Assembly: GCA_017463185.1 (NCBI GenBank)
Contig: JAFTPS010000014.1
Location: 40,514-104,513, forward strand
Direction: 5' to 3'
Source of the DNA: Alphaproteobacteria bacterium
GTDB lineage: Bacteria > Pseudomonadota > Alphaproteobacteria > Rs-D84
Length of the DNA stretch: 64,000 nt
Shown here piece by piece: positions 36,352 through 38,358 of this stretch; position 1 is the first letter of the stretch, and each line of letters starts with the position of its first letter. The notes below the pieces were generated by a model that searched no databases, had not been told where the DNA came from, and saw nothing but the letters and a program-made list of their open reading frames with translations. A program made the translations under genes and the position numbers.

Positions 36352-36510
36352 TTATCTAATACCGCTCAAATAATGTTTTATCACGCAATGTCATTCCATT
36401 CTGGCAGGTTTTGGCACTTGGGTCAAATTTCGTATATCCACAATAACAACCATATATCCCCATTTTAGTATCCATTTTTCCGCCCGCATTCGCACAATCA
36501 ACCCCGGCAT

Positions 36511-38358
36511 TCAGGTCAAACGAACCGCTCTGCAATCGCCCCCCCCGACAGAAATAACCCCTTGATTTAACTGTGATATTTTTTGCAATATCACCCCATC
36601 ATCGGAACTGCCCTGTTTACACTTATCCGTGTCATATACACATTGCCCATCCGCCCATCTAAGATTACATTCCAACGGAACATACCTCTTTACAGCACCG
36701 CATGACGCTTCGTTCATTCCCGACATAACACCACTGTCTGACAATCCACTGTTGCCATAAACATCATAAGATAACACACCATCCGTTTCAGCGGTAAAGG
36801 CCAATGATTTATACGGCACACAAACCTTAGACGGCATTTTTTTGCTGCCAATCGCAGTCTGTAAATTCTGATACCCACGGGGCGTCAGCGAACAATATTT
36901 TATCTTTTCTATCCATGTATCATTGGGATTCTGACTATACTTATTCCTAACCATACGGTCCGGCGCATCCTGGGCCAGGATTCGTTCCAAAGTATCCAAA
37001 TCCAATGTTGCCCCATTGCGACTGTTGCGACGACCAAATATTGAAATAGATTCCAATGCCGATGTAGCACACCCAACACGCACCAATCGGTCCCCTTCGT
37101 AATTTTCATCCAACCATTCACGCAATACCGGGTCATTATCGCCTGACCCGCCAATCATTTCGGTCAGTGTACAACGCACATCATCCTGGGGTGGCACGGT
37201 CATACCAACGGAACATTCCTGGCCGCCCTTTACCGCAACAGAAAAATCGCTTTGTTGCTCATCCCCCACTTTTGCATAACCACCTTTTATAGAACGCCCA
37301 TTTTTTGAACAACTATCTTCGGTATAGATAGCAGTCGCATGTTTAGCACCCGAACCTGTGCATAAAAATTTTCCCCATTGATTACATGAACCATTCAGCA
37401 TCATAATCACATCAGACACATCCACCCCCACCGCCAGGGACATTTCCAACGCCTCATACAATTCATCAATTATTTCATCATATGGCTCAAAGAATCTTTG
37501 CGCCTTGTTCTTAAATGTCTTTACACGCTTTGGCCCCGCACAGTTATTACCACGCGTATCACACCCCGCATAGGTAAAAGCATCTTGCATTGTTGCCTTT
37601 AATGATTTTAATGCAACCTCGGCATTTTCTATCTTGGTCAGGATTTGACCAGAAATCTTTTCACGCGCCAAAATATCATCAGACACACCCGATTGCGCCG
37701 CGGCAATTTGCGCATCACTTAAATCCGTTGTATCGCCAGCCGCGACCGCATTCACGGCAACCGATTGAGCCTGTTGTGCGGCGGTTGCATCTGCAATTGC
37801 CTGGGCGTTTATGGCCTTTTGTTCCTCTAACGCGGCCTGTAATTGTGCAATTGTTTCAGAATTTTGTTGTTGCATTTCATACTGCATCTGCTGCATTTGC
37901 GCCTGCATCTGGGCCATTTGCTGGCTGTTCTGTTGTGCGGCGGCCTGGGCCGCGGCGGATTGTGCCGCCAATTCCTGTTCCTGGGCACGCGCGGTCGCAT
38001 TTGACACTAGTTGCGCAGAAATATATTCAACTAAATCATCACCGTATTGTTTACAGGCCTCATTACTGTTGACACAGCCCGCAACAATCGGACGCGCCAA
38101 ATCCAGTGATGTGCACCCAGAACATTTTGGTTGTGCACAACGCAAAATCAATGAATTACAATTACCAAAATCCGCCTTGGCCGAATTAGTTGTGCCACTG
38201 CGATTGTTCATCAAAGAATTCCAATTATTATTATTTACCGAACCCGACCCCGGATTATATGCGGTTAAATTATTTCCCAGGGTTGACGCAACCTGAGCCG
38301 ACGCAATCGCCGGGAAAGCGCAAAAAATCAACAATAAAAATCGCTTAAATAATTTCAT
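36511..38358 (-). CDS. Secreted Cys-rich protein with Gln/Ala-rich coiled coil; the 3' end may be displaced by a poly-G8 frameshift
   Basis: Start trimmed to MKLFKRFLLLIFCAFPAIASA. CNSLILRCAQPKCSGC.. then QMAQMQAQMQQMQYEMQQQ. The G8 tract at 36539..36546 lies 30 nt before the stop. Confidence 0.75.
   Translation of the reverse strand: MKLFKRFLLLIFCAFPAIASAQVASTLGNNLTAYNPGSGSVNNNNWNSLMNNRSGTTNSAKADFGNCNSLILRCAQPKCSGCTSLDLARPIVAGCVNSNEACKQYGDDLVEYISAQLVSNATARAQEQELAAQSAAAQAAAQQNSQQMAQMQAQMQQMQYEMQQQNSETIAQLQAALEEQKAINAQAIADATAAQQAQSVAVNAVAAGDTTDLSDAQIAAAQSGVSDDILAREKISGQILTKIENAEVALKSLKATMQDAFTYAGCDTRGNNCAGPKRVKTFKNKAQRFFEPYDEIIDELYEALEMSLAVGVDVSDVIMMLNGSCNQWGKFLCTGSGAKHATAIYTEDSCSKNGRSIKGGYAKVGDEQQSDFSVAVKGGQECSVGMTVPPQDDVRCTLTEMIGGSGDNDPVLREWLDENYEGDRLVRVGCATSALESISIFGRRNSRNGATLDLDTLERILAQDAPDRMVRNKYSQNPNDTWIEKIKYCSLTPRGYQNLQTAIGSKKMPSKVCVPYKSLAFTAETDGVLSYDVYGNSGLSDSGVMSGMNEASCGAVKRYVPLECNLRWADGQCVYDTDKCKQGSSDDGVILQKISQLNQGVISVGGGDCRAVRLT

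Follow-up and report, generated by a model that had tools for sequence, protein, structure and literature searches.

Features and reading frames of the poly-G gene

We analysed a 64,000-nucleotide (nt) stretch of contig JAFTPS010000014.1, hereafter the window, from an alphaproteobacterium of the Rs-D84 lineage. The subject of this work is a minus-strand gene of the window that encodes a secreted protein, assembled as an open reading frame (ORF) of 615 amino acids (aa), and that carries a run of eight guanines (G8) shortly before its stop codon. The evidence described here suggests that this tract is probably a slipped-strand phase-variation switch, which toggles a C-terminal module of the protein and is currently in the OFF position.

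On the minus strand the 3' end of the gene reads ...ATT TCT GTC GGG GGG GGC GAT TGC AGA GCG GTT CGT TTG ACC TGA, with the tract 28 nt upstream of the stop of the OFF frame and more than 90 % of the way along the gene (Table 1). As assembled, the ORF comprises a signal peptide, a Cys-rich and Q/A-rich helical N-terminal part of ~520 aa, a variable region and an out-of-frame tail of eight residues, DCRAVRLT. The product depends on the length of the tract: G8 gives ...GGGDCRAVRLT, G7 gives ...GGAIAERFV, and G9 or G6 opens the 60-codon Cys module, which reads RLQSGSFDLNAGVDCANAGGKMDTKMGIYGCYCGYTKFDPSAKTCQNGMTLRDKTLFERY up to its stop. The junction of the long form is ...VISVGGGR / LQSGSFDLNAGVDCANAGGK, as compared with the short tails GGGDCRAVR... 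(G8) and GGAIAER... (G7). The minus-strand sequence confirmed an earlier note on this DNA as regards the position of G8, the TGA stop and the alternative frame of 60 codons, which stops 4 nt short of the next ATG; the five Cys counted there in the extension proved to be four.

The arrangement goes beyond what chance would give. The window has a G+C content of 44 % and holds only two G/C runs of eight or more. In its genes, 3.3 % of the off-frame stretches stay open for at least 60 codons. GGG is a minority Gly codon (24 %), GGG-GGG encodes 3 of 105 Gly-Gly pairs, and a single one of 11 tri-Gly sites, the G8 tract itself, is written as a homopolymer.

Table 1. Features of the poly-G gene and of the gene downstream, in positions of the window
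Feature	Position	Strand	Description	Basis
Poly-G tract, G8	36539..36546	−	Encodes a Gly linker and sets the frame of all downstream codons	Sequence
615-aa ORF as assembled (G8 frame, OFF)	36511..38358	−	ATG at 38358	
Predicted Sec signal peptide	38296..38358	−	MKLFKRFLLLIFCAFPAIASA, cut after ASA, next residue Q	Read from translation
Premature TGA of the G8 frame	36511..36513	−		Sequence
TGA of the G7 frame	36516..36518	−	Tail AIAERFV, as in P0122, P0123 and P0124	Translation
Out-of-frame C-terminal extension	36356..36538	−	60 codons and a TAG stop (36358..36356); in frame only with G9 or G6	
Module core	36404..36496	−	First to last invariant Cys, C-x3-GG-x10-C-x-C-G-x4-FDP-x4-C	
Downstream 264-aa secreted-protein gene	35557..36351	−	ATG at 36351, after ATAA (4 nt) following the ON-frame stop	

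Mechanical ORF finding in the window returned a 59-aa ORF with a TTG start (MQSGSFDL..., 36356-36535, minus strand), which is the orphaned module. In relatives, gene callers emitted ORFs of 50-60 aa (loci L088 and L089) or lengthened the N-terminus of the downstream gene (278 aa in L083 vs 249 aa in L085), both of which are annotation artefacts of the OFF state.

The extension is a conserved C-terminal module

A search of a collection of 5.8 billion proteins, with the hypothetical fused (in-frame) protein as the query, returned 1,238 relatives, many of them spanning 98-100 % of the query. In 88 of the 120 aligned homologs the module is in frame and C-terminal, following C-x3-GG-x(8-12)-C-x-C-G-...-C. 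When 31 diverse modules were aligned on their own, four Cys proved invariant and one Gly near-invariant, all of which are retained in the window extension; the four Cys are presumably disulfide-bonded. When the fused sequence was modelled with AlphaFold2 from an 88-sequence alignment, the module (residues 615-667) was predicted with a predicted local distance difference test score (pLDDT) of 86-93, and the linker that contains the GGG (residues 600-613) with a pLDDT below 50. Modelled alone, the module had a mean pLDDT of 84 and consisted of one helix and five short strands. According to these models, the tract sits at a domain boundary near the 3' end of the gene, and the frame downstream of it encodes an intact predicted domain.

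A related strain present in metagenome run X5, which is ~7 % diverged, also has the extension frame open and all four Cys kept, and its five amino-acid changes in the extension are either conservative or confined to a variable loop. Signs of pseudogene decay (stops, lost conserved residues) are absent from the window extension and present in a relative, L088, in which the module remnant has lost Cys and gained a stop. Taken together, the alignments indicate that the longer form is the ancestral C-terminus of the protein. The presence of the Cys module in frame in orthologs supports the earlier suggestion that this form is, or was, the real one; G8 in all strains and orthologs ending at ..AVRLT, the pattern that was set against that suggestion, is clearly not what the comparison gave. 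A likeness between the tail of the G8 frame, GDCRA, and the start of the L074 module, GDCSA, is probably a coincidence.

The tract varies in length between otherwise identical genomes

Logan contigs of five gut-metagenome runs from one study (X1-X4 and X6) were compared over the 64-kb window. The long single-copy contigs of the five runs were identical to the window (0 substitutions, 0 gaps), except for the tract in X3, where a 1-base deletion at 36539 generates G7 (contig depth 14.6x); X1, X2, X4 and X6 carry G8. The same change separates two independent assemblies in ENA, L081 (G8, on a 399,675-bp contig) and L082 (G7), which show 1 difference in 4,843 nt, at the tract. It is also found among proteins, since the cluster of the window protein at 90 % identity holds only G8 forms (P0001 and P0121) and G7 forms (P0122-P0124), which are otherwise 100 % identical; the next-best protein matches beyond the strain are at most 69 % identical. 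Thus, the check for length heterogeneity proposed in the earlier note gave a positive result, with G7 and G8 both found between samples, in assembled contigs.

The other G8 of the window (at 62775), five G7/C7 tracts and 18 A8/T8 tracts were invariant in the same runs, and the remaining between-sample differences were confined to short contigs of multi-copy intergenic repeats at 40-150x. Run X5 has a depth of 4x at the tract, where its contigs break at 36491 and 36559, and run X7 is without the locus. JGI metagenome contigs, scanned for the exact pattern with tract lengths 5 to 11, gave no match.

Besides the tract under study, G/C tracts of at least seven lie at 21806-21812, 31988-31994, 32521-32527 and 46024-46030 (C7 on the plus strand, G7 on the coding minus strand), at 56496-56502 (G7) and at 62775-62782 (G8, between convergent genes), and none of these varied in the five runs. 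The four coding-strand G7 tracts are hosted by an OmpA-domain protein, a 459-aa unknown protein, an 874-aa Cys-rich protein (the tract being 112 nt upstream of its stop codon) and a 288-aa ORF. Candidates for multi-copy dispersed repeats, all short and intergenic, are located at ~9440-9470, ~14180-14290, ~32007-32345, ~35200-35550, ~42002-42310 and ~61778-61808. These stretches have a depth of 40-150x, as compared with 13-19x for single-copy sequence; contigs break at them, with joints from 32197 to 35404, 32058 to 32341 and 42392 to 43333, and they carry all other single-nucleotide polymorphisms and indels among the samples.

The tract recurs before the terminal tail in related species

We compared 80 loci from species-representative genomes of human and ruminant guts, named 'Candidatus Enterousia sp.' or uncultured Alphaproteobacteria, whose proteins are 40-64 % identical to the window protein. 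Candidatus Enterousia belongs to the order Rs-D84 and has genomes of <1 Mb and a predicted lifestyle of obligate symbiosis or parasitism (PMC12306168). At least 14 of the 80 species loci have a tract of G7-G10 immediately ahead of the terminal tail. In L003, L015, L017, L036, L047 and L078 the reading frame runs on into the tail; in L022, L037 and L042 (all G8) and in L049 and L074 (both G10) the tail is intact but in another frame; L024 and L065 have G9 with non-Cys tails, and the contig of L035 ends inside the tract. The frame offset of the tail differs by relative, being +1 in some loci and +2 in others.

Runs of eight or more were found 10 times in the 31.7 kb that make up the last 300 nt of the gene, vs 5 times in 534 kb elsewhere (0.75-1.5 per 100 kb), an enrichment of ~20-40-fold in gene tails over the rest of the gene or the flanks (Poisson p 1e-12). 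In a shuffle control the mean was 0.84 and the maximum 5 in 2,000 shuffles. The tract is therefore over-represented relative to composition, a pattern that, at the level of sequence, points to selective maintenance.

ON/OFF pairs were also identified inside single 90 % protein clusters. L083 and L084 carry G8 and are OFF (P0043, 614 aa, ending in ...AVGGDL), while L085 carries G7 and is ON (P0129, 658 aa, ending in ...CEDAGGTYNATKAKCMCGSIPMAYEIQKCKDGNFIN); between them there are 0 substitutions in the 2,096 nt of the gene and 7 differences in the 4,246 nt of the loci. A second pair presents the same pattern, with L086 (G10) being OFF and L087 (GAG7) ON. In relatives, a partner gene of ~250-278 aa directly follows the ON-frame stop, with a gap of 2 nt in L085 and an overlap of 4 nt in L087. 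The locus L089 needs two frame corrections, at A6 and at G6CG3, the context TCTGTCGGGGGGCGGG being homologous to that of the window. The N-terminal body is still conserved both in L089 and in L088.

Within the first pair, a second single-base indel lies at the last codons of the module (T5 vs T4A at ~3169 of L083, giving KDGNF vs KDGNFIN before the stop), and the upstream gene differs by G8C vs G7TC, so that a good part of the 7 differences is associated with homopolymers. A second G tract upstream of the gene start was observed in L005 (position 2404, G9, 75 nt), L023 (position 2927, G7, −74) and L049 (position 2935, G7, −66), and could be a promoter-level switch. The homologous site of the window, ~38420-38437, has only GGGGatggatGGGG followed by T8 and is invariant among the runs.

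A probable phase-variation switch and its alternatives

We propose that the G8 tract is a hypermutable simple-sequence repeat (SSR), i.e. a contingency locus, placed inside an unstructured Gly linker. Slipped-strand mispairing at replication would gain or lose a G and thereby change the frame after the linker. With G9 or G6, a secreted protein of ~667 aa would end in the four-Cys module, its stop abutting the start of the next gene, while with G8 or G7 the conserved body of ~607 aa would stay and a nonsense tail of 7-8 residues would replace the module. What is toggled would be the terminal domain of ~55 aa and not the whole protein, and the window strain would now be in the OFF phase.

Three results carry this proposal: the tract varies in length between otherwise identical genomes, it recurs before the tail at the same boundary in both frames, and a near-identical sister pair holds one ON and one OFF member. 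An ancestral long form whose coding frame is intact, Gly runs that in this genome are normally not written as G homopolymers, and a predicted lifestyle of which such loci are typical also speak for it. The three results make slipped-strand phase variation the best supported of the three explanations raised in the earlier note, the others being a sequencing error and a recent inactivating indel. The last of these may still apply to the window strain, because only two OFF lengths have been seen in it. We infer that switching in the window strain is reversible, and that it may be adaptive, for instance by varying an exposed tip that binds a partner or the host or is targeted by phage in an obligate symbiont or parasite. 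The truncated form would itself be functional, as suggested by the high conservation of the ~520-aa N-terminal region in lineages with a decayed or out-of-frame module. The OFF frames also end ~130-160 nt early relative to the ON-frame stop, and translation of the downstream gene of ~250-264 aa might consequently drop; such translational coupling is speculative. The lack of a Shine-Dalgarno motif at the downstream gene says little, such motifs being infrequent across the genome (15 of 36 genes).

The serious rival is neutral decay, in which a dispensable module was permanently lost by a frameshift in a mutation-prone G tract, the difference between G8 and G7 is drift and the module is a young pseudogene remnant. 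The presence of only two OFF lengths in ~12 contigs would agree with it, and so would the conservation of the N-terminal body in both L088, where the module has decayed, and L089, where two shifts are needed. These two loci also indicate that the OFF state can become permanent, and this is one of several points that weigh against a switch. Neither the assemblies nor the collection of 5.8 billion proteins contained an in-frame (G9 or G6) allele of the window strain, so for this strain the variation demonstrated is from OFF to OFF (G8 to G7). The tract lengths were read from assembled contigs, which drop minority variants, the five samples of a single study may not be independent, and no RNA run holds the locus. 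In addition, selection on frameshifts near the C-terminus is generally relaxed (PMC3315296), and variation of the tract could accordingly be neutral. Nevertheless, we consider neutral decay unlikely. The window extension has gone without a stop for 60 codons, a 3.3 % chance, and has kept all the invariant residues, while the ~7 % diverged strain has kept the open frame and the four Cys and has changed only at variable positions. Tolerance alone would leave unexplained the 20-40-fold enrichment of long G runs at the exact boundary, when GGG-GGG is otherwise avoided. Furthermore, relatives often carry the tract in an in-frame allele, and ON and OFF forms are found in a near-identical pair.

Two further explanations are recoding and an artefact. 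If the DNA stayed G8 and the full-length protein arose by recoding, either through transcriptional slippage or through −1 frameshifting on G_GGG_GGC, short and long forms would be made in a fixed ratio. A −1 shift from G8 does enter the extension frame, G_GGG_GGC formally fits the X_XXY_YYZ pattern, and slippage of the polymerase at homopolymers is a known phenomenon of reduced genomes. On the other hand, the tract length itself varies in the DNA, whereas recoding sites are normally fixed; the same −1 shift cannot rescue the G7 allele; the 99 nt downstream are without a stimulatory structure (z = +1.0, 172 of 200 shuffles folding at least as well); and no single direction of shift fits, because the tail is in the +1 frame in some relatives and in the +2 frame in others. 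Recoding is thus very improbable. As for a homopolymer error of sequencing or assembly, with the true sequence being in frame, homopolymers are indeed error-prone and the low-depth contigs of X5 end on either side of the tract. The option of a sequencing error has been discarded, since G7 and G8 were each reproduced by independent assemblers and samples through different pipelines (Logan, MEGAHIT-style k141 contigs and a scaffolded assembly) at 10-18x, with nothing else differing. Variation is confined to the tract and repeated in independent ENA assemblies and in protein forms, while G8 at 62775 and all 18 A8/T8 tracts stayed constant in the same runs; the search of the protein collection found the in-frame version nowhere, and unrelated projects of metagenome-assembled genomes (MAGs) contain the same out-of-frame architecture. 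We therefore regard an artefact as scarcely credible and a phase-variation switch as the probable explanation.

Comparison with known systems

SSR contingency loci are typical of an obligate symbiont or parasite lifestyle. Those of Neisseria, Haemophilus, Campylobacter and Helicobacter, and the A7 tract of inlA in Listeria, share with the window locus a G/C homopolymer of at least seven in a gene whose product is secreted and probably exposed, a length that differs between otherwise identical genomes with a frame shift at each change, and a host-associated, small-genome organism. Classical switching tracts are biased to the 5' end and generate null alleles (PMC2831843; PMC3315296). Unlike these, the window tract, known here from the genome sequence of an uncultured organism, lies near the 3' end and removes only the terminal module of ~55 aa.

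The closest documented analogue is the polyG tract of hsdS1/hsdS2 in NgoAV, a type I restriction-modification system of Neisseria gonorrhoeae, which shares the logic of toggling a domain through a 3' tract. In NgoAV, one tract length gives a truncated yet functional protein and the loss of one G fuses a domain encoded downstream, with natural isolates ranging from 6G to 9G (PMC9577141). The two systems differ in that NgoAV encodes a DNA specificity subunit, unrelated to the secreted Cys-rich protein, and in that both NgoAV forms have been shown experimentally to be active. The variable lipoproteins of Mycoplasma are modular, C-terminally hypervariable surface proteins of small-genome bacteria, and have in common with the window protein a conserved N-terminal body, highly divergent C-termini and switching driven by simple repeats. 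They have no sequence or structural similarity to it, and the window protein has no lipobox.

The protein family and its genomic neighbourhood

In the window protein, a conserved Cys-rich segment (ADFGNCNSLILRCAQPKC...) and long Q/A-rich helices are accompanied by a conserved mixed domain that reaches ~residue 520 and by a hypervariable C-terminal region. The N-terminus is conserved in the A2 consensus, and invariant alignment columns extend to ~residue 519. With its Sec-type signal peptide, the protein is a putative surface protein, as the earlier note calls it. Three pairs of relatives (P0002/P0055, P0025/P0048 and P0004/P0043) are 90-93 % identical over ~500-520 aa and unrelated in the last 100-150 aa, which indicates a hypervariable, perhaps recombining, C-terminal cassette besides the proposed poly-G switch.

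Searches of Pfam gave only sub-threshold, low-complexity matches to the protein, and neither NCBIfam nor a profile search of PDB sequences gave any match. With Foldseek, the full model retrieved only generic helical bundles (best E value 0.6), and the best E value for the module alone was 3.6. The family appears to be restricted to these gut alphaproteobacteria. Paralogy with the OmpA-domain protein (21045-23009) and with the 874-aa Cys-rich protein was rejected. An ephrin-receptor-like or epidermal growth factor (EGF)-like Cys pattern was an impression that we do not claim, its sole support being a sub-threshold Ephrin_rec_like match in another, neighbouring ORF.

The neighbours are ordinary chromosomal genes (FtsK, a YbeY-Lnt fusion, MgsA, FabD, PAP2, an S41 peptidase and the OmpA-domain protein), with unannotated secreted Cys-rich ORFs between them. 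A cluster of secreted Cys-rich proteins without family assignment occupies 32409-35033, 35557-36351, 40915-42051 and 42391-43017, all on the minus strand. Its 874-aa and 378-aa proteins have repeated C-x2-G-Y/F...C modules, and the 208-aa ORF has the Ephrin_rec_like match (E = 2e-4, below the cut-off). YbeY and apolipoprotein N-acyltransferase (LNT_N and CN_hydrolase) form a single fused ORF of 656 aa (23209-25179, minus strand), a fusion that is also called in L083-L089 (665-666 aa). In these relatives the poly-G gene directly follows YbeY-Lnt, but in the window it follows FtsK (38544-40820), and the window YbeY-Lnt is followed by the unrelated OmpA-domain protein.

Significance

While the slippage mechanism is familiar, what is new is its occurrence in an uncharacterised secreted protein family of an uncultured lineage, with the position of the switch conserved across many species. 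One practical consequence concerns annotation: gene callers split or truncate the gene, yielding forms of 615, 613, 638 and 661 aa and the spurious 59-aa ORF, and MAG annotation and pangenome pipelines will thus miscount it unless the length of the tract is considered.

Uncultured bacteria of the Rs-D84/Enterousia-like group are widespread in the gut; their genomes are <1 Mb, and they are predicted to live off other cells. That a hypermutable tract has been kept at one domain boundary across many of their species marks the protein, and especially its terminal module, as being under fluctuating selection, and this makes it a concrete candidate for interaction with a partner, the host, the immune system or phage. 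A broader reading, which we put forward tentatively and regard as rather doubtful, is that the tract is a conserved, selected device across these gut alphaproteobacteria, which would stochastically cap a secreted protein with a disulfide module serving as a recognition tip or as a target of immunoglobulin A or phage. Together with the hypervariable C-terminus and, in some species, the second G tract ~70 nt upstream, it would then constitute their main system of antigenic and adhesive variation. If this reading is true, the switch would be a direct pointer to the protein that mediates the dependence of these bacteria on a partner cell or host.

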